Positions 5,195 through 13,927 of a stretch of DNA of 29,198 bases are shown here, in pieces. The notes under the pieces were generated by a model. That model was given only the letters and a program-made list of their open reading frames with translations, was not told the origin of the DNA and searched no databases. This DNA is from Planctomycetota bacterium (GTDB lineage Bacteria > Planctomycetota > Phycisphaerae > Phycisphaerales > SM1A02): NCBI GenBank assembly GCA_041182645.1, contig JBEGNG010000025.1, forward strand, positions 1-29,198, given 5' to 3'. The position numbers and the translations under genes were made by a program. Numbering within the stretch: the stretch's first letter is position 1; the number at the start of each line of letters is the position of its first letter.

Positions 5195-5929
5195 TCACAT
5201 CGTCATGCCGCCGTCCACCACCAGCACGTGGCCGGTCAGGTAGCCGGCCTCGTCCGAGCTGATGTACGCACAGGCTGCCGCGATGTCATCCGGCGTGCCG
5301 AAGCGGCGGACCGGGATGTGCTCGATGGCCTTGTCCTTCACCATCTGGGGCAGCGCATCGGTCATGTCGGTGGCGATGAAGCCCGGCGCGATCACGTTGG
5401 CCGTGATCCCCTTCGAACCGAGTTCCTGCGCGATCGTCTTGGTCAGGCCGATCACGCCCGCCTTGGCCGCCGCGTAGTTGGCCTGGCCCGCATTGCCGCT
5501 GATCCCGCTGACGGAACCGACGTTGACGATGCGGCCCCACTTGCCGCGCAGCATGTGGCGGCTCGCGGCGCGGCAGCCGGCGAAGCAGCTGCGCAGGTTC
5601 ACCGAGAGGACCGTGTCGAAATCCTCGTCGCTCATGCGCAGGATCAGGCCGTCGCGGGTGATGCCCGCGTTGTTCACGAGGATGTCCAGGCGGCCGTGCG
5701 CCGACGCGACGTCCTCGACGAGCTGCGCCCAGGCTGCGGCATCGGCGAGGTCGCACGATCGGGCCTCCGCACTGCCGCCCGCGGCGGTGATCGCCGAGAC
5801 GACCTCGGCGAGGGCGTCGGCGTTGCGCGCGACCGCGACGACGTGGCGGCCGTCACGGGCGAGACGGAGGGCGATGGCCTTGCCGATGCCTCGGCTGGCT
5901 CCGGTGACGATGGCGACGCGGCGTTCGAT
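5195..5929 (-). CDS. fabG: 3-oxoacyl-ACP reductase (start apparently ATC at 5929)
   Basis: VTGASRGIG, LVNNAGITRD, GNAGQANYAAAK (YxxxK), APGFIATDMT and VDGG motifs. AGGA lies 7 nt before ATC 5929, giving 244 aa. The start position is uncertain. Confidence 0.93.
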   Translation of the reverse strand: MERRVAIVTGASRGIGKAIALRLARDGRHVVAVARNADALAEVVSAITAAGGSAEARSCDLADAAAWAQLVEDVASAHGRLDILVNNAGITRDGLILRMSDEDFDTVLSVNLRSCFAGCRAASRHMLRGKWGRIVNVGSVSGISGNAGQANYAAAKAGVIGLTKTIAQELGSKGITANVIAPGFIATDMTDALPQMVKDKAIEHIPVRRFGTPDDIAAACAYISSDEAGYLTGHVLVVDGGMTM

Positions 5930-5970
5930 GACGGGATCCTTTCCTCTGGGCGCCGAGGGCGCACGGTCCG

Positions 5971-5976
5971 AGTGTA
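5971..5976 (-). promoter_or_regulatory. putative -10 element (TACACT) for fabG
   Basis: Minus-strand TACACT about 40 nt upstream of the fabG coding start, in the fabG/acpP divergent spacer. Confidence 0.5.
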
Positions 5977-6015
5977 TCGGGCTCGATGCGCCCCGACGGG
6001 ATTCCCGGACACCGC

Positions 6016-6021
6016 TATACT
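6016..6021 (+). promoter_or_regulatory. putative -10 element (TATACT) for acpP
   Basis: Near-consensus TATACT in GC-rich DNA, 40 nt upstream of the acpP TTG start. Confidence 0.6.
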
Positions 6022-6061
6022 CCGCCCCCACGGCATGTCGCCGTTGCAGGAGGCAACCCCT

Positions 6062-6313
6062 TTGACCGAAGCAGAGATTGAAGCCAAGGTGATCAACATC
6101 ATCGCTGACAAGATCAAGGTCGAGAAGGCCGAGATCAAGCGCGAGACGAACTTCATGACCGACCTGAACGCCGACAGCCTCGACATGGTCGAGCTGCTGA
6201 TGGCCTTCGAGGAGGAGTTCGGCACCAAGATCCCCGAAGGCGACAGCGAGAAGCTGCAGACCGTCGGCCTGGCCATCGACTACATCAAGCAGCGCAAGGC
6301 CGCAGGCGGCTGA
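6062..6313 (+). CDS. acpP: acyl carrier protein (TTG start)
   Basis: DLNADSLDMVELLMAFEEEFG contains the phosphopantetheine Ser; AGGAGG SD lies about 8 nt before TTG 6062; 83 aa. Confidence 0.96.
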   Translation: MTEAEIEAKVINIIADKIKVEKAEIKRETNFMTDLNADSLDMVELLMAFEEEFGTKIPEGDSEKLQTVGLAIDYIKQRKAAGG

Positions 6314-6401
6314 TCCCCGCCGTCGGGAGCCGCCCGCCCGGGTCCGCCCGGGTCCAAGGCGCTGCCGCGGGCCCACGGCCCGACCCCGAGTGATTGCATG
6401 C

Positions 6402-6438
6402 CAGGGAGGGCGTTCCGACGCCCTCCCTGCTGCTTTTG
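6402..6438 (+). terminator. intrinsic terminator-like hairpin between acpP and fabF
   Basis: Perfect 12-bp stem CAGGGAGGGCGT / ACGCCCTCCCTG with a TCCG loop, followed by CTGCTTTTG. Confidence 0.7.
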
Positions 6439-6455
6439 TGTAGGTTCTCCGGTCC

Positions 6456-7712
6456 ATGCGCACCCTGACCCTGCGACGCGTCGTGGTCACCGGCCTCGGC
6501 GCCGTGACCGACTGCGGCCACTCCGCCCCCGCCACCTGGGATTCGATGATCCACGGCCGATCCGGGATCGGCCCGGTGACCGCCTTCCAGCAGAGCGGCG
6601 ACTGGTCCGTGACCTTCGGCGGCGAGGTCCGCAACCTCGACTTCACCAAGGTGCTCGACCCGCGCGACGCCAAGCGCATGGACCGCTACTGCATCTTCGG
6701 CTACACGGCGGCCTGCGAGGCTGCGGCCGACAGCGGCATCGACTTCACCGCCGGCGACCCCTACCGCCGCGGCGTGGCCATCGGCAGCGGCATCGGCGGC
6801 ATCGAGACGATCGAGCAGGGCATCAACAAGATCGCCCAGTCGGGTCCACGCATGGTGAACCCGTTCACCGTGCCCAAGCTCATGCTGAACTCCTGCTCCG
6901 GCCACGTGAGCATCCGGTTCGGCCTGCGCGGCGCGAACGTCGCGACGGCGACCGCCTGCGCCAGCGGCAGCCACGCGATCGGCGCCGCGTATCACTTCAT
7001 CCAGCGCGGTGACGCCGACGTCATGATCGCCGGCGGCGCCGAAGGATCCGTCACCCAGCTCTGCATGGCGAGCTTCGCCGCCATGAAGGCGCTGAGCACC
7101 CGCAACGACGCCCCCACCGAGGCGAGCCGCCCGTTCGACCGCGACCGCGACGGCTTCGTGCTCTCCGAGGGCGCCGGGGTGATCGTGCTCGAGGAACTCG
7201 AGCACGCCAAGGCCCGCGGCGCAAGGATCTACGCGGAACTCGTCGGCTACGGGGTGAGCGGTGATGCCCACCACATCGCGGCGCCGGATCCGGCGGGTGC
7301 CGGCGCGCAGCGCGCCATGATCAACGCCCTGGCCGATGCGCAGCTCGCACCGGACGCCATCGGCTACATCAATGCCCACGGCACGAGCACGCCGCTGGGC
7401 GATGCCGCCGAGGTCGCTGCCGTGAAGCAGGTCTTCGGTCATCACGCGACGAAGCTCTCGGTCAGCAGCACCAAGGGCGTCACGGGGCACGGGCTCGGCG
7501 CCGCCGGCGGCATCGAGACGGTGGCCACGGTCATGGCCGTCAAGAGCGGCATCCTGCCGCCGACGATCAACCTGCACAGCCCCGACGAGGGGTTCGACCT
7601 GGACTTCGTGCCCAACCACGCCAAGGAGCGTTCGATCCGCCACGCGATCAACAACTCCTTCGGCTTCGGGGGCCACAACACCAGCCTGATCTTCGCGCGC
7701 TTCGAAGGCTGA
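6456..7712 (+). CDS. fabF: 3-oxoacyl-ACP synthase II
   Basis: RRVVVTGLG, ATACASG (Cys), INAHGTST (His), GHGLGAAG (His) and NSFGFGGHN. Confidence 0.97.
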   Translation: MRTLTLRRVVVTGLGAVTDCGHSAPATWDSMIHGRSGIGPVTAFQQSGDWSVTFGGEVRNLDFTKVLDPRDAKRMDRYCIFGYTAACEAAADSGIDFTAGDPYRRGVAIGSGIGGIETIEQGINKIAQSGPRMVNPFTVPKLMLNSCSGHVSIRFGLRGANVATATACASGSHAIGAAYHFIQRGDADVMIAGGAEGSVTQLCMASFAAMKALSTRNDAPTEASRPFDRDRDGFVLSEGAGVIVLEELEHAKARGARIYAELVGYGVSGDAHHIAAPDPAGAGAQRAMINALADAQLAPDAIGYINAHGTSTPLGDAAEVAAVKQVFGHHATKLSVSSTKGVTGHGLGAAGGIETVATVMAVKSGILPPTINLHSPDEGFDLDFVPNHAKERSIRHAINNSFGFGGHNTSLIFARFEG

Positions 7713-7745
7713 CGCCGCCGGGCGGACGGAATCTGCACGGGCCGG

Positions 7746-8828
7746 TCAGGCGGCCGTCAGGCGCATCATGCGTTCGGAAGCCTCGACGGCCTCGCTGAAG
7801 GTCGGAGCACATGCATCGGCCCCAACGTCCTTCCACAGGTCCGGCACGACCTGGAACGGCTGCCCCCCGACGATGATGCGGACATCACGGGCGGCCGGCG
7901 ATGCCCGCACCGCGGCAATCGTGTCGGCCAACGGACGCAGGGAGAGCGAACTGCCGATGCCCAGGGCCAGCACGTTGATCGGCCTGCCGGTCTGGGCCGC
8001 ATCGAGCATGGCGACGATCTCGTCGGCCGGCGTGTTGGCGCCCAGGCACTCGACCTTCCAGCCCGCAACCTCGAAGAGATCGGACAGCATGCGGACGCCC
8101 ATGTCGTGGTGGTCGCCGCCGACGCTCGTGGCGAGCACGCACCAAGGCTGCGAATCCCCCATGGGCACATCCATCCGCAGCTGGGCCATCATGGCCTGGG
8201 TCGCGCTGGTCACGAAGTGCTCGTCGGCGATCGATGCTTCCTGCATGTGCCACATGCGGCCGACCTCGGCCATGCTCGGGACGAGGATGCGCTCGTACAC
8301 CTGGGCGAGCGTGCGACCGGAGAGCCGGGCGCCATGCACGACATGCCAGGCTCGGTCACGGTTTCGCTCGAGCAGGTGCAGCAGATAGAGCCGCGCCGCC
8401 GTGGAATCACCGCCGGTCGCCTGCAGCAGCGAACTCGGTTGCGGGACCGGGGTGCCGACGACCGACTCGAGCGCCCGATCCACCATCCGGCACGCCACCA
8501 TCGCCTGCTTGGGGAGCTGCTCAGTGAGCACGTCGCGCAGGGCATGCATGCTCTCGACGACATCGGTGTCCTGGACCTGGCGGGACGAGAACGCCACGCG
8601 CGACCACTGGACCTGCTCCACGAGCAGTTCGACGCGCTCGAAGGCGACCGCCACCGCGAGGTGCCCGAGCCGCTGCAGCATCTCGTTCTTCCAGAGCCGC
8701 TCCGCGTCCGGGCCGTAGCGGGCCAGGACCCCGGGCACGCGCTCGAGCAGCCGTGCGGCGGCCCACCCCGCGATGGCGCGGGACACCCCATCGATGGTCT
8801 CGGCTGCCTGACGACTGGCGGGATTCAC
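7746..8828 (-). CDS. cobalamin-binding protein: N-terminal globin/phycobiliprotein-like helical domain + B12 cap + B12 Rossmann domain
   Basis: W-x9-EH motif (WHMQEASIADEH), DxHxxG (DHHDMG), LGANTP and IIVGG. The helical N-terminal 120 or so residues contain no helix-turn-helix. Confidence 0.85.
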   Translation of the reverse strand: MNPASRQAAETIDGVSRAIAGWAAARLLERVPGVLARYGPDAERLWKNEMLQRLGHLAVAVAFERVELLVEQVQWSRVAFSSRQVQDTDVVESMHALRDVLTEQLPKQAMVACRMVDRALESVVGTPVPQPSSLLQATGGDSTAARLYLLHLLERNRDRAWHVVHGARLSGRTLAQVYERILVPSMAEVGRMWHMQEASIADEHFVTSATQAMMAQLRMDVPMGDSQPWCVLATSVGGDHHDMGVRMLSDLFEVAGWKVECLGANTPADEIVAMLDAAQTGRPINVLALGIGSSLSLRPLADTIAAVRASPAARDVRIIVGGQPFQVVPDLWKDVGADACAPTFSEAVEASERMMRLTAA

Positions 8829-8886: not shown

Positions 8887-9699
8887 TCACTCCCGCTTGC
8901 CGCCGAACATGGCGGCGAGCCGGAAGGCGAGCTTGAGCGCCTCGATGTAGACCCAGACCAGGGTGACCACCAGCCCGAACGCCAGGTACCACTCGGCGTC
9001 CCGCGGTGCACCGGCCTGCACGGCGTCATCGATCACGCGGAAGTCGACGACGAGCCAGAGCGCCGCCAGGCCGAGCACGAGCACGTTGATGCCCAGGCCG
9101 ATCAGCGCCGGCGTGCCGCCCTCGAGCGCGCTGCCGATCGAGATGAACGGCAGGGACACGCCGAACAGCGAGAGCACGAAGCCGATGAGCATGACGACCC
9201 CCAGGCCGACCGTCGCCACCGTCAGTGCCATCTGGAAGGTCTGGCCGCCGCGCAGGATGCGGGCCTTGTAGAGGCCGAGCATCGTGCCCATGAGGGCCAT
9301 GGTGATCACGAACGCCTGCAGCGCCAGGCCGCCGGCGACGGTGATGCCCTTGGACTCGAGGATCCGCTCGAGGAAGAACGTGACCGAACCGATCGTCGCG
9401 CCCTGCAGGATCGAATACACCGGGGCGACCCACCGCGCACTGGCGGGGTTGCGCCAGATGGCGAAGAAGGCGACGAAGCTGAAGATCAGCGACGCGATCA
9501 TGAAGCCCATCGCCCAGCCGGGGTTCGAATTCGTCAGCGCGTAGGACACCGCGCCTGCGATCGCGCACAGCATCGCGCACGCGCCGGTCTTGTTGATGAC
9601 GCCCTGCACGGTCGCGACGCCACCCGCGGGCTGGGCGTGCACCTTCTGGTCGAAGAGCTGGTCGGCGAAGACGGGATTGCTGGATTGGAGCTGGGTCAT
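8887..9699 (-). CDS. Bax inhibitor-1/YccA family membrane protein
   Basis: About 7 hydrophobic segments; TVQGVINKT, APVYSILQG, LALQA and C-terminal AFGLVVTLVWVYIEALKL. Confidence 0.85.
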   Translation of the reverse strand: MTQLQSSNPVFADQLFDQKVHAQPAGGVATVQGVINKTGACAMLCAIAGAVSYALTNSNPGWAMGFMIASLIFSFVAFFAIWRNPASARWVAPVYSILQGATIGSVTFFLERILESKGITVAGGLALQAFVITMALMGTMLGLYKARILRGGQTFQMALTVATVGLGVVMLIGFVLSLFGVSLPFISIGSALEGGTPALIGLGINVLVLGLAALWLVVDFRVIDDAVQAGAPRDAEWYLAFGLVVTLVWVYIEALKLAFRLAAMFGGKRE

Positions 9700-9742: not shown

Positions 9743-10585
9743 TCAGGACGGTCGCTGCGCCGTCTGCTCGGCCTGTCGGGCCTGCGCATAGCGCGCCAGC
9801 TGCCTGGCCAGTGTGTCGGCATGGGCCGGGTGGAAACTGAAGTCGAAGCCCAGGCCGACGTAGGTGCGCTGGCTGCTGTCGAGCCGGGTGTGGGCGAGCT
9901 TGGCGGCCACGACGATCGGCACGGGCATGGATGCACCGAGCGGGATGCGCAGCCAGAAGGTCCGGTGCCGGGCGAACACCGGCGCGGCCGTGGCGTCGAC
10001 CCGCAGGCCGACGCCGCCGGTCGCCATGTTCATGAGCTCGGCCTTCACCGGCGGCCCCACCTCGGGGCGCCGTGTGGGCTCGGCGGCGATCGTGCCGTGC
10101 TCGAGGTAGTCGCGTGCCACCGCGTCGTAGGCGACCTGCGCGTCGTGCACGCTGGCGGGGTTCAGCAGCGGGAAGACATCGATCTGTGGAGGCGTCAGGC
10201 CACCCAGTTCCAGACGGGGGTGTCGGCGCAGGCAACGCTCGACCGTGTCGGGCAGTTCGAGCCGGAGCACCCGGCCCTCCCTGCCGGGGACATCCCCCAG
10301 CTTGCGGGTGGTGAAGGTCCACCGGTTCTGGCCCAGCGTGATCACGCCGATCAGGGAAACGCCGTCGCGCAGCTGGATCGGCATGCCGACGGTCGCGGGC
10401 GATTCGACCAGCACGTCATCATCGCGCAACTCAAGCACGTGCAGGCGCCAGATCAGGTCGCTGGCATCGCGCTGTTCGGCACCCATGCCCGGCCGGGCGA
10501 TGGCGATCTCGATCGCGCCGCCGCGCTCGAAGACCTGACCCATGGTTCGCCGCCACTCCGCCGTTCGTGATCGTTGCGCAGGCAT
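9743..10585 (-). CDS. PilZ-domain / flagellar-brake (YcgR-like) protein
   Basis: N-terminal beta-rich domain, RCLRRHPR (RxxxR), NMATGGVGL (D/NxSxxG-like) and a C-terminal YVGLGFDF strand. Confidence 0.72.
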   Translation of the reverse strand: MPAQRSRTAEWRRTMGQVFERGGAIEIAIARPGMGAEQRDASDLIWRLHVLELRDDDVLVESPATVGMPIQLRDGVSLIGVITLGQNRWTFTTRKLGDVPGREGRVLRLELPDTVERCLRRHPRLELGGLTPPQIDVFPLLNPASVHDAQVAYDAVARDYLEHGTIAAEPTRRPEVGPPVKAELMNMATGGVGLRVDATAAPVFARHRTFWLRIPLGASMPVPIVVAAKLAHTRLDSSQRTYVGLGFDFSFHPAHADTLARQLARYAQARQAEQTAQRPS

Positions 10586-10608: not shown

Positions 10609-12815
10609 TCAGGGAGTTCGGATCCGGCGCAGCCTCGCCAGCGACTCGGCGGCGGCGGCGCACCGCTGCGCCGTGGCCTCGAAGCCCCCGAACCGGACCT
10701 CGTAGAAGGAGCGGATGACGCTCCGCAGGTGGCCGGCTGCCTCCGGGGAGGTCCGGTCGAGTGCCGACGCGACGGCGAGCGGCGTCATGCCGGCGACCCG
10801 CTGCACGCCGTGGCGCGCGGCCGCCCGCAGTGCATCGAGGTAGATCCGGGCCAGTTCGCGCTCGCGCGGGCCCGCCGAGCGGCCGAGCAGGCGGCTCGTA
10901 CGGCGTCGCCTCAGCTGGAGCAGCACGATGACCACGACGGACGCCAGCAGCACCATCGCGATCGAGCCCAGCCACAGTCCACCGACCAGGCCCGAGAAAG
11001 TCTCGACGAGCCGCTGCCGGACCAGTTCCGTCGCTTCGCGCACCGCGCGAACGGGGCGCGAGAGCGCTTCGCGCGTGGAGGCCATGCGTTCCACGAACTC
11101 GGATTGGGCCTGTTCATCGAAGCTCACCACGTGCCGCGTCCAGGCGAAGTTGAGTGGGTCCCAGATCCAGCGCAGGCCATCGGCCCAGCTGCGCTGCTGC
11201 GCCTGCAGCACCTCGAGCGTGGCGGGCGGCGTGCCGTCGAAGCTCGTCCATTGTGCCGGCCCGGTCCGCACCTCGACCCACGCGTGCGCATTGGACGATC
11301 GGACGATGTACTGCGACTGGGCATCGTCGTATTCGAGGGCGATGAACCCGGCGACGACCCGCGCATCGACCCCCATCGACTGGCACATGGCGCAGAGGGC
11401 ACTGGCGAAGTACTGGCAGTGCCCGAGCTTCGACGACGAGAGGAAGTTGACGATCGGATCCTCACCGCGCCGGCGCCGGATCGAACCGAGGTCGGTCGTG
11501 TACCGGAAGTCGCCCGAGAGCAGCGCCTGCTCGAGCGCCGTGGCCACGGCGCGGTTGCGGTCCCACCGTGCCGCCGGCGACGACCGGGCCTGCTCGAGCG
11601 TGGGCACCGTGCGCCCCCTGGGACCGAAGCGCTGCCAGAATGCCTGCGCGAACGGCTCGACGCCCTCGACCGGGAAGGAGGGCAGCGGCCCCGGCTCCAC
11701 GATGCCGCCTGCGAGCGCGGCCATGTCGCCCTCGGTGGGAAACGGCTTGACGCTCAGCGCGTAGCGATCGAACTCACCGATGCGGCTCGAGGCCGACTGC
11801 AGCAGCATGGTCGATGCGTCGAGCGCGACCGTCATGCCCTCGGGTGCCTGCAGGGCGATCGGCGCGAGCACGCTGAAGACCTGGTTCGTGGCGAGCCCGC
11901 GCATCTGCACGACCTGGCGCCAGACCTGCTGTCGCCGTCGATGTACCTGCGGTTGGGCTGTTGCGGCACCTGCCAGGACTGTGAGACCGGGTCGTACGCA
12001 TCGAACACCGCACCGCGCAGCCGAAGCGGCTCGACGTGCTCGCCCGCCACGCCGTCGGGGCCGATCCACCGGACGGTCATCACCTCGGTGCGTGAGTCCT
12101 CGATCCGCTCGTCCGAGGCCAGGCTCACGCGCAGCGAGAAGCCCGCGGTGCGCGTCCTGGTCCACGACTCGCCTTCGAAGCCCTGGCGCGGGAAGATGAC
12201 GAAGACGACCGCCGCGCACGCCGCCGTGATCAGGAACGACGCGGTGCCGAACACCGCCCAGCACCGCATGGGCGTGCTGCCCACCGACGGCTCGAAGGGA
12301 GCGGGCGCAGCGCCCGACGGCCGACGCGCGTCATGGCTCGCCGCGGCGCGCTCGGAACTGGCCTGGACCCACGATGCTGCGGCGCAGACGGGCATCAGCA
12401 GCGAACCGAGCACCAAGGGCAGCCCGGCCAGCACGTCCGTGCTGTCGAGCGCCGCCACGAGCAGCAGGATCCCGCCGAGCGCGAGCACGTGGCGCTCATC
12501 GGACGCCCGGTGGCGCGCGAAGAGCTTGATCACGAGCGCCATGCCGCACAGCAGACCCACCCGCTGCACATCGGGAGGCCGTCCAGCGACGAGCGCCATG
12601 GACGCTGCCGCCACCACGAGGATCGCGATGAGCCAGTGGGCCACGCGCGTCGGGAGGCGCCGCGGCCGTGCACCCTGCGCGAGCACGCCGCTGCATGCCG
12701 CGGCGACGAGCGAGAAGGCGAGGAAGACGAAGGAATCGTCCGCGAGGCAGAACGCCGAGAGCGACAGCATCGCCGACAGCAGCACGACGGCCTGCATCGC
12801 CCGCGGCATGGTCAT
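10609..12815 (-). CDS. membrane transglutaminase-like protein (TgpA-type: DUF3488 + transglutaminase core + DUF4129), with an apparent frameshift at about 11930
   Basis: N-terminal multi-TM region ending AAVVFVIFPR and LRLRGAVFDAY in one frame. GHCQYFASA (Cys), NAHAWVEV (His), FDGT (Asp) and C-terminal FYEVRFGG are in another frame. ATGA overlap with the DUF58 gene. Confidence 0.88.
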
Positions 12816-13927
12816 GACGCGCCCCCAGCGAGCGCGCAGAGCGCATCGAGCTGCGCTGCGGACTGGTGGACCGCGCCCGCCCCGCCGACCGACGCGTCGA
12901 TGCGCCCGGGATGGATCACCACCGTCGCGGCCCGTTCGTCGCCGGGCCCGGACGGGAGCGACGAGGTGCGCGGGGCATCGAGGTCCAGTCGCGCGAGTTG
13001 CACCAGGAGCCGGTCGAGGTGTCGGACGCCGCCGGCCGGCGGCATCGGCACGCAGGGAAGCCCGTGCACGCGAAGGCTGACCTCGTGACCGAGCGCGATG
13101 GCACTCGAGGCGAGGCTGGCCGCCATGGTGATGGCGTCTTCCTCGCGCTGGCGTGCATCGACGCCGGCGGGCAGGCGACCCGCGAGGCTGGCCGTGGGTT
13201 CCGCAAGGTTCAGCACGAGCCGCAGGCGCGGATAGCTCGGGCTCGACCGCTCGATCACGGCCAGTTGGTCGCGCGATGCGGAACGCCGCCAGGCGACGTC
13301 GCGCAGGCTCGTGAGTTCCGGCGCATCGCGGACGCCGAAGAACTCCTCGCCGTGTCCGGGCCGCGATGCGGCACGCATGCCGGCCGGCCCGCGGTCCAGG
13401 AGCGCGCGCAGCCGCGGCGCCGGCACCCGCACCACGCGCGGCAGCACCGTCACGGTGGCGCGCTGCACCCAGGTGACGCGCTTGCCCACGAGGCCGAACG
13501 GGAACGAGCTCTGCGCCACGACGCCACCGAGCCGGACCTCGCCGCGGCGCGTCGGCCACCAGGTGAGTTCCGCCACGCAGCGCTCGCCCGGAGCCGCGGA
13601 CACGAGCCATGCCTCGGCCGGACCCAGGGCGGACTCTCGGATCGACACGGCGAAGGCCGGCCAGATCCAGGATGCGTTGTGCACCTCGTACCGCAAGGCC
13701 AGCGGCTGGCCGACGCGTGCATCGCGCGGGACGAGCCTGCGCACGCGGAGGGCCATCATCATCGCTCCGCTCGCGAGGCCGCTCACGACGATCATGCCCA
13801 CGACGGTGCCGACCGCCCAGACGAGCAGGTTGGACGGGCGCCAGACGACGGCCAGCAGGAGCACCGGCACGGCGATGAGGAAGACGAGCCCCCCGAGTGC
13901 CGGTCGGTAGGCCAGGCGCCGCTTCAT
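12812..13927 (-). CDS. DUF58 domain-containing protein
   Basis: Two N-terminal TM segments (with NLL motif), PTRRG, SSFPFGL, GEEFFGVR, VAWRRSA and EDAITMAASL. Confidence 0.85.
   Translation of the reverse strand: MKRRLAYRPALGGLVFLIAVPVLLLAVVWRPSNLLVWAVGTVVGMIVVSGLASGAMMMALRVRRLVPRDARVGQPLALRYEVHNASWIWPAFAVSIRESALGPAEAWLVSAAPGERCVAELTWWPTRRGEVRLGGVVAQSSFPFGLVGKRVTWVQRATVTVLPRVVRVPAPRLRALLDRGPAGMRAASRPGHGEEFFGVRDAPELTSLRDVAWRRSASRDQLAVIERSSPSYPRLRLVLNLAEPTASLAGRLPAGVDARQREEDAITMAASLASSAIALGHEVSLRVHGLPCVPMPPAGGVRHLDRLLVQLARLDLDAPRTSSLPSGPGDERAATVVIHPGRIDASVGGAGAVHQSAAQLDALCALAGGAS

Follow-up and report, generated by a model that had tools for sequence, protein, structure and literature searches.

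Photoglobins were defined by Schneider et al. 2021 (PMC8717448), and their commonest architecture joins the photoglobin to a B12-binding_2 and a B12-binding domain, in either order. That survey included a sequence from Planctomycetaceae, found two-component or one-component signalling genes linked at almost all loci, and flagged the label 'MtbC1' as a misannotation of photoglobins; in its model photoglobin, WP_077839650.1 (residues 1-130), C46, D49 and L80 form the predicted ligand triad (PMC8717448). Zhang et al. 2024 (PMC10979010) then characterized the stand-alone photocobilin SasPcob and the diguanylate-cyclase-fused AbDPcob, both of which bind adenosylcobalamin (AdoCbl). Biliverdin binding to SasPcob is tight, and once it is bound the Co-C bond can be cleaved by red light as well; AbPcob, with a His at the Asp270 site, showed only ~20% biliverdin occupancy. 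The photocobilin globin shields the edge of the corrin and touches both B12 subdomains, the stand-alone SasPcob acts in trans on a diguanylate cyclase, regulating it via protein-protein contacts, and the predicted groups of the family carry the B12 domain at either terminus (PMC10979010). Here we analyze a gene for a photoglobin-B12 protein in a 29,198-nucleotide stretch of DNA (the window; contig JBEGNG010000025.1, assembly GCA_041182645.1) from a Planctomycetota bacterium of the order Phycisphaerales, whose metagenome-assembled genome (MAG) amounts to 2.26 Mb in 361 contigs and is 84% complete.

The product of this gene is probably a stand-alone AdoCbl photoreceptor of the photoglobin-B12 (photocobilin) class with the globin placed first, its function being assigned by analogy. 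We place it in this family because a globin domain homologous to the biliverdin domain of SasPcob and AbPcob is fused to a CarH-type B12 module. Within the known photoglobin-B12 family it represents a lineage-specific type, globin-first and with the variant residues Trp46 and Glu49. Its features are the following (HMM, hidden Markov model):

7746..8828, minus strand: whole gene of the photoglobin-B12 protein, 360 aa, GTG start at 8828, stop codon at 7746-7748.
8454..8828, minus strand: N-terminal photoglobin domain, residues 1-125, five helices in a phycobiliprotein-type globin fold (profile and fold matches).
8682..8693, minus strand: W46-K47-N48-E49, the site aligned with the C-x-R-D bilin motif of phycobiliproteins (HMM alignments to 8J2W and 8DDY_B).
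8604..8606, minus strand: W75, aligned with SasPcob Trp296, which contacts the D ring of biliverdin (kept in 155/160 relatives).
8412..8453, minus strand: linker, residues 126-139, of varying length among homologs (no secondary structure; indel-rich alignment columns).
8172..8411, minus strand: four-helix-bundle cap (B12-binding_2), residues 140-219 (Pfam PF02607 at 150-217, E 3.7e-11).
8217..8252, minus strand: W193-H194-x8-E203-H204, the adenosyl-pocket motif W-x9-EH of CarH type (seen in alignment with TtCarH and photocobilin chains).
7749..8141, minus strand: Rossmann-type B12-binding domain, residues 230-360 (Pfam PF02310 at 231-350, E 7.3e-15; Foldseek).
8097..8114, minus strand: D239-x-H241-x-x-G244 (DHHDMG), with H241 as the predicted lower axial ligand of cobalt (H241 in 160/160 relatives).

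An earlier note on this DNA had described a helical N-terminal domain, a cap with W-x9-EH and a Rossmann domain with DHHDMG, and all of them were located in the open reading frame. Its translation carries RYGPDAERLWKNEMLQRLGHLAVAV from residue 37, WHMQEASIADEH as residues 193-204 and DHHDMG as residues 239-244, which confirmed the motif coordinates. The gene has a third-position GC content of 0.88, the codon-position pattern of genuine genes in this window of 70% GC, and the full-length protein aligns from residue 1 with 35 homologs. A promoter and terminator scan around the gene yielded nothing exceeding shuffled expectation. Pfam matched only the two B12-binding families listed above; the search matched no family to residues 1-145 and detected no DNA-binding (helix-turn-helix) or enzyme domain in the 360-aa protein, bearing out the note's statement that an output domain is missing.

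The evidence for the globin comes from profiles and from the fold. A profile of 29 close homologs matched the C-terminal biliverdin-binding globin of SasPcob (8J2W) with an E value of 1.3e-7, and with a profile of 59 diverse homologs (hmmsearch) the values were 2.5e-10 for 8J2W, 2e-5 for AbPcob (8J2Y) and 3.6e-5 for allophycocyanin beta. Folded alone, the N-terminal domain reached a predicted local distance difference test (pLDDT) score of 93, and a Foldseek search of the PDB with this model returned a top 50 composed entirely of phycobiliproteins or smURFP, with template modelling (TM) scores of 0.65-0.74. VIA-align gave Z scores of 16.9 with allophycocyanin, 16.1 with the SasPcob globin (model residues 2-130 against residues 225-346) and 14.2 with AbPcob. 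The N-terminal domain is a photoglobin: a globin of the phycobiliprotein type that is homologous to the domain by which photocobilins bind biliverdin. The earlier impression of a globin- or phycobiliprotein-like domain was thus correct, by profiles and by fold.

The B12 module holds every sequence signature of the CarH-type light-responsive domains, in agreement with the earlier use of W-x9-EH as a mark of such photoreceptors. The signatures GxxW, EH, GxxH and GxxxP, derived with SignatureFinder for light-responsive cobalamin domains (PMC11796333), were all found, as GRMW, EH, GDHH and GANTP. Among 160 full-length relatives W193 was conserved in 160, E203 in 159, H204 in 155 and H241 in 160, and because they are kept in 155-160 of the 160 these motifs are not due to chance. 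The PDB sequences closest to the B12 part were AbPcob (8J2Y, E 1.7e-11), CtMerR (8JBS, 5.1e-11), SasPcob (8J2W, 1.9e-9) and TtCarH (5.7e-8). 8JBS is the B12 domain of a MerR-family protein of Chloracidobacterium, and all the nearest solved structures of the module are light sensors.

The AlphaFold2 full-length model, built from the 35 homologs, scored a pLDDT of 93.3 and a predicted TM score of 0.90. The confidence of this model implies that the globin would be packed in a fixed way against the B12 module. The linker had the lowest pLDDT (block mean 72), and the modelled helices of the cap span residues 140-153, 157-169, 174-194 and 200-219. In Foldseek comparisons the B12 half superposed on 8JBS, 8J2Y, 8J2W and CarH with root-mean-square deviations (rmsd) of 2.2-4 Å across ~215 columns. 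The full-length search against the PDB aligned the B12 module only, the domains being permuted relative to the solved photocobilins, and the N-terminal domain was folded and searched separately. In the comparison of predicted structure with CarH and photocobilins that the earlier note had proposed, the B12 half matched both and the globin matched the photocobilins.

Two other assignments of the protein were tried and rejected. A CarH/LitR transcription factor is ruled out by the lack of a helix-turn-helix in Pfam, by an N-terminal domain that is a globin, and by the NCBIfam model TransRegCarH, which scored 46.7 bits against a cut-off of 400. For the AerR/SCHIC reading, the AppA_SCHIC match, with an E value of 0.021, fell short of the cut-off.

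In the solved photocobilins the B12 domain is N-terminal and the globin C-terminal, so that the characterized proteins are permuted relative to this one, a point on which the earlier note is silent. The reversed order does not exclude membership in the family, because PMC8717448 and PMC10979010 both include it. The architecture is already known, apparently with no globin-first member studied at the bench, and the novelty implied by the earlier note was overstated: globin-first proteins (PMC8717448) and stand-alone photocobilins (PMC10979010) had both been published.

The protein has close relatives in 178 species-level genomes, which come mostly from lakes and rivers and almost without exception bear the label Phycisphaerales, Phycisphaerae or Planctomycetota. 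When the order was sampled evenly, 31 of 151 genomes carried the gene; in the family of the window it was present in 18 of 41 genomes, with a distribution that is patchy by genus. An exhaustive profile search for the N-terminal domain produced 1,682 cluster representatives, most of them ~350 aa long with the domain at the N-terminus; the architecture of the present protein prevails among them, and an AFDB cluster shows it over the whole chain (TM 0.73/0.76). The search also brought up three proteins of ~720 aa (P0071, P0077 and P0117) that are arrays of five or six tandem photoglobin-type domains; in the stretches that matched, a B12 module was not evident.

The supply of AdoCbl in the organism is plausible. 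A PduO-type adenosyltransferase is encoded in the genome of the window (E 3.5e-60) and in four relatives, and the former also encodes a MeaB/ArgK-fused B12-binding mutase subunit (contigs C64 and C221 hold the mutase subunit and the adenosyltransferase). Searches of these five genomes did not find CbiC, which suggests that cobalamin is scavenged in such small genomes (2.3-3.6 Mb). With this step of corrin-ring synthesis not found and the PduO-type transferase present, AdoCbl would come from scavenged cobalamin. A second B12-binding-like protein of 235 aa is encoded in the same genome (contig C31, L092:4729-5433, minus strand). It matches PF02310 (E 1.3e-7) and, weakly, B12-binding_2, and shares 31% identity with the photoglobin-B12 protein over the Rossmann half of the latter; it has DESMDL at the DxHxxG position, and so no axial His, and is without W-x9-EH. 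An ortholog-like match is present in a congener (G122), and the protein may be a cofactor-free or SCHIC-like regulator.

By analogy with CarH and with SasPcob/AbPcob, a sequence of events can be proposed in which the domains, motifs, conservation, predicted packing and adenosylation route are those found here. Cobalamin would be scavenged and then adenosylated by the PduO-type transferase, and AdoCbl would be bound base-off/His-on, with H241 holding the cobalt from below and W193, E203 and H204 forming a pocket for the 5'-deoxyadenosyl upper ligand under the cap. The AdoCbl-loaded protein, probably a head-to-tail dimer, would be the dark state. Green or near-UV light would cleave the Co-C bond, after which H194 may ligate cobalt as His132 does in TtCarH, and the resulting change in conformation or oligomeric state would shift binding to a separate partner protein. 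Because SasPcob activates a cyclase in trans, the three GGDEF proteins of the genome and a PilZ-like neighbour encoded in the same strand run can be named as candidate partners, and as candidates only.

Two lines of evidence bear on whether the globin holds a bilin, its pocket residues and the genes for a source of biliverdin. In HMM alignments the Cys and Asp of the allophycocyanin motif C-L-R-D, the former being the bilin-attachment residue, correspond to W46 and E49, respectively. The SasPcob counterpart of E49 is chain index 264, which is Asp270 in the numbering of the paper; the offset of +6 was confirmed through Trp296, chain index 290, which aligns with W75. Glu49 thus occupies the site of the acid that hydrogen-bonds the bilin pyrroles (SasPcob Asp270, photoglobin D49, phycocyanin D87), and W75 is the aligned equivalent of the tryptophan that contacts the bilin D ring in SasPcob. 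The residues most conserved in the globin are W46, R53, L57, W75, R83 and P106. At position 49 the 160 relatives have E (60), D (29), H (24), S (11) or N (11) most often; within the family of the window 18 of 19 carriers have Glu and the remaining one has Asp, irrespective of heme oxygenase, and it is outside this family that the site varies.

No heme oxygenase (PF01126) was found in the genome of the window or in a relative of the same genus (94% complete). Across the order sample the enzyme is present in 10 of 31 carriers and in 47 of 120 non-carriers, revealing no association with the gene, and in the family of the window 4 of 19 carriers have it; where present in carriers, it lies 70-570 kb from the gene or on another contig. 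HugZ-type and HemS-type genes were not found in four of five carriers searched (G000, G122, G043 and G013), and the fifth (G104) had one borderline DUF2470 match. These data take away the genomic support to be expected if biliverdin were an obligate chromophore, but they are compatible with import of a bilin or with an unrecognized enzyme. Among carriers in the order sample, an acidic position 49 did not track the presence of heme oxygenase. In a sister family, f2, heme oxygenase is present in 34 of 41 genomes, and the five carriers of a photoglobin-B12 protein have N, N, Y, H and L at position 49; a simple model of biliverdin binding would predict the reverse.

A sensor that uses AdoCbl only, in which a ligand-free globin serves as a shield for the corrin or as a docking surface for the partner, is a serious possibility, held with somewhat less than even confidence. 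It would represent the extreme of a trend that the authors of PMC10979010 proposed for AbDPcob, and it agrees with the heme oxygenase and position-49 data: across the 160 relatives the six most conserved globin residues stay fixed while the Asp-equivalent site drifts. The contacts reported for the photocobilin globin, with the corrin edge and both B12 subdomains, are also in its favour. Set against this, the conserved Trp and Arg residues that line the pocket also fit a retained ligand, bilins could be imported from lake water rich in cyanobacteria or made by an enzyme that was not recognized, and the absence calls come from MAGs.

The alternative put forward in the earlier note is a true dual-chromophore photocobilin, with a non-covalent bilin beside the corrin and red light also triggering Co-C cleavage as in SasPcob. 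We regard this as possible, if doubtful. The globin is homologous to the biliverdin domain of SasPcob and has the same fold, the Trp296 equivalent is widely kept, the Glu that prevails at position 49 in the window's family is a conservative replacement for Asp270, and the strongly conserved Arg37, Arg53 and Arg83 could bind the propionates. However, no biliverdin-producing enzyme was found in the genome of the window or its congener, heme oxygenase is neither associated with nor linked to the gene among carriers, and all the f2 carriers have heme oxygenase together with a non-acidic position 49. A bulky Trp stands at the phycobiliprotein Cys position, and AbPcob, which has a His at the Asp site, shows low biliverdin occupancy (PMC10979010). 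As it was stated, then, the dual-chromophore claim was not supported: the Asp of SasPcob is Glu here, the site is often non-acidic in relatives, and a source of biliverdin is missing from the genes found.

A non-photic role, as a sensor of cobalamin availability or a corrinoid carrier in a B12-scavenging cell whose light sensitivity would be incidental, is improbable. B12 status does matter to a cell in which B12-dependent enzymes are present and CbiC was not found, as in the five carriers searched, and the same fold serves in AerR-type proteins for signalling that depends on cobalamin (AerR 7TE2 was a Foldseek match). The conserved W-x9-EH adenosyl pocket, however, marks light-responsive domains and not generic B12 binders, the carriers are plankton of sunlit lakes, judged from the descriptions of the sequence records, and light-harvesting proteins are among the relatives of the fused domain. 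A methyltransferase-associated corrinoid protein of the MtbC/MtgC kind is exceedingly improbable and was rejected together with MttC, for although several homologs bear the JGI name 'methanogenic corrinoid protein MtbC1' and the NCBIfam MtgC/MtbC models match with E values of 1e-11 to 3e-14, the scores are 40-53 bits against model cut-offs of 310-370 bits, no cognate methyltransferase gene lies nearby in ~80 loci, neither the W-x9-EH motif nor a photoglobin domain belongs to that family, and the MtbC1 label is the misannotation already flagged by Schneider et al. (PMC8717448).

Several points weigh against the stand-alone AdoCbl photoreceptor that we prefer. The protein is known here from its sequence and predicted structure. 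The methyl-transfer corrinoid models also score on its B12 module (MtgC 3.1e-14, MtbC 1e-11), at values far under their cut-offs. Cofactor loading would depend on uptake, and the locus shows no conserved partner gene, its synteny over ~90 loci comprising housekeeping neighbours only. Finally, the absence calls are made on MAGs and, with the window's genome at 84% completeness, are provisional.

The gene has two same-strand neighbours upstream, given as context only:

8887..9699, minus strand: BI-1/YccA-type membrane protein (PF12811, E 8.9e-51).
9743..10585, minus strand: PilZNR/PilZ-like protein (nearest ESM-Atlas clusters PilZNR/PilZ, score 0.96).

The earlier label of the first as BI-1/YccA held, and most related loci have a BI-1 gene no more than ~3 kb from the homolog. 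The PilZ label of the second is a supported lead rather than a confirmed call, this protein having no Pfam match even at an E value of 10. It contains the strings RRHPR and NMATGG, which resemble the RxxxR and D/NxSxxG motifs, and since the Atlas record begins at residue 15, a Met, an internal ATG may be the true start. Further upstream on the minus strand (10609-13900) are a protein of 551 aa with a transglutaminase core and DUF4129 and a weak DUF58-like open reading frame, a pair resembling the common transglutaminase/DUF58 gene sets. As noted earlier, carotenoid and photolyase genes are missing: none turned up in the annotated parts of the window.

On the other side fabF is convergent with the gene, 33 bp from its stop codon. 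The commonest arrangement, that of most loci, places the gene after fabG-acpP-fabF and in the same direction, directly adjacent or with one inserted gene between, and PhoH, BI-1, NIF3, ROK and gatCA are found downstream of it. Another order, shared by the window's clade and four distant loci, runs transglutaminase, PilZ-like, BI-1 and the gene itself on one strand, with fabF convergent. Comparison of window positions 5195-8828 with loci L001-L086 indicated that the fabG-acpP-fabF adjacency is kept in relatives only 38-47% identical, and that the segment is inverted in the window's own clade relative to the usual co-directional order after fabF. Because of this flip in orientation we read the adjacency as lineage synteny. 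No kinase, regulator, STAS/SpoIIE or cyclase gene was linked to the gene in the loci surveyed. The survey of homologous neighbourhoods that the earlier note had proposed thus yielded housekeeping synteny without a signalling partner, and the assignment of a partner from the operon was rejected.

The results confirm and extend known biology and open no new category. They add a well-supported and abundant clade of B12 photoreceptors for the non-phototrophic lake plankton of the Phycisphaerales, and they correct the automatic label 'MtbC1 corrinoid protein'. The main points are that a source of biliverdin appears to be lacking, that the cells depend on scavenged B12 and that the gene is prevalent in lake Planctomycetota. 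Because most carriers are without a recognizable heme oxygenase and depend on scavenged cobalamin, the clade offers a natural test of whether a photoglobin needs a bilin. If the Trp46/Glu49 variant uses AdoCbl only, or binds another pigment, the photocobilin model would be refined and a compact optogenetic module could be obtained. A bolder proposal, which we consider rather unlikely, is that the photoglobin has been repurposed in streamlined, B12-scavenging Phycisphaerales without apparent biliverdin synthesis, either as a ligand-free docking and shielding module or as a receptor for an exogenous tetrapyrrole, with a partner encoded elsewhere and signals that may feed cyclic di-GMP (c-di-GMP) pathways via the GGDEF and PilZ-like proteins. 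If that were true, the repurposed photoglobin would be part of a green-light sensor, or of a combined sensor of light and foreign pigment, such as phycobilin from co-occurring cyanobacteria.

Among known systems, TtCarH and the CarH/LitR proteins (PDB 5C8A-5C8F) share with this protein the cap and Rossmann module, the W-H...E-H pocket and the base-off/His-on motif, and H194 follows W193 here as His132 follows Trp131 in TtCarH; the rmsd to CarH structures is ~3-4 Å across ~215 columns. CarH differs in having a MerR-type DNA-binding domain, which is missing here, so that this protein cannot itself repress transcription, and in the absence of the extra globin. The phycobiliproteins (allophycocyanin, phycocyanin, smURFP) share the globin core, as the Z scores of up to 16.9 and TM scores of 0.65-0.74 attest, as well as profile similarity, with an E value of 3.6e-5 to allophycocyanin beta. 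Unlike them, the domain is missing the N-terminal X-Y helices, so that alignments begin near phycobiliprotein residue 32, and it has neither the attachment Cys nor a CxRD motif; nor is the host a phototroph.

The globin-first photoglobin-B12 proteins of PMC8717448 have the same architecture and residue spacing, with C46/D49/L80 there corresponding to W46/E49/F80 here. The photoglobins of that survey differ in a distal Cys, Ser or Thr, where Trp stands here, and in their linked signalling genes, of which this clade has none. SasPcob (Saccharothrix syringae, PDB 8J2W/8J2X, PMC10979010) differs in its C-terminal globin, which is N-terminal here (residues 1-125, with the B12 module at 140-360), in Asp270 and Thr267, replaced here by Glu49 and Trp46, and in its setting, an actinomycete with STAS/SpoIIE signalling neighbourhoods as opposed to the housekeeping neighbours and the genome without a detected heme oxygenase described here; overall identity is ~20%. 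Both proteins nevertheless stand alone without an output domain, carry W-x9-EH and the axial His, and contain homologous globins (E 2.5e-10; Z 16.1) in which Trp296 of SasPcob has its equivalent in W75.

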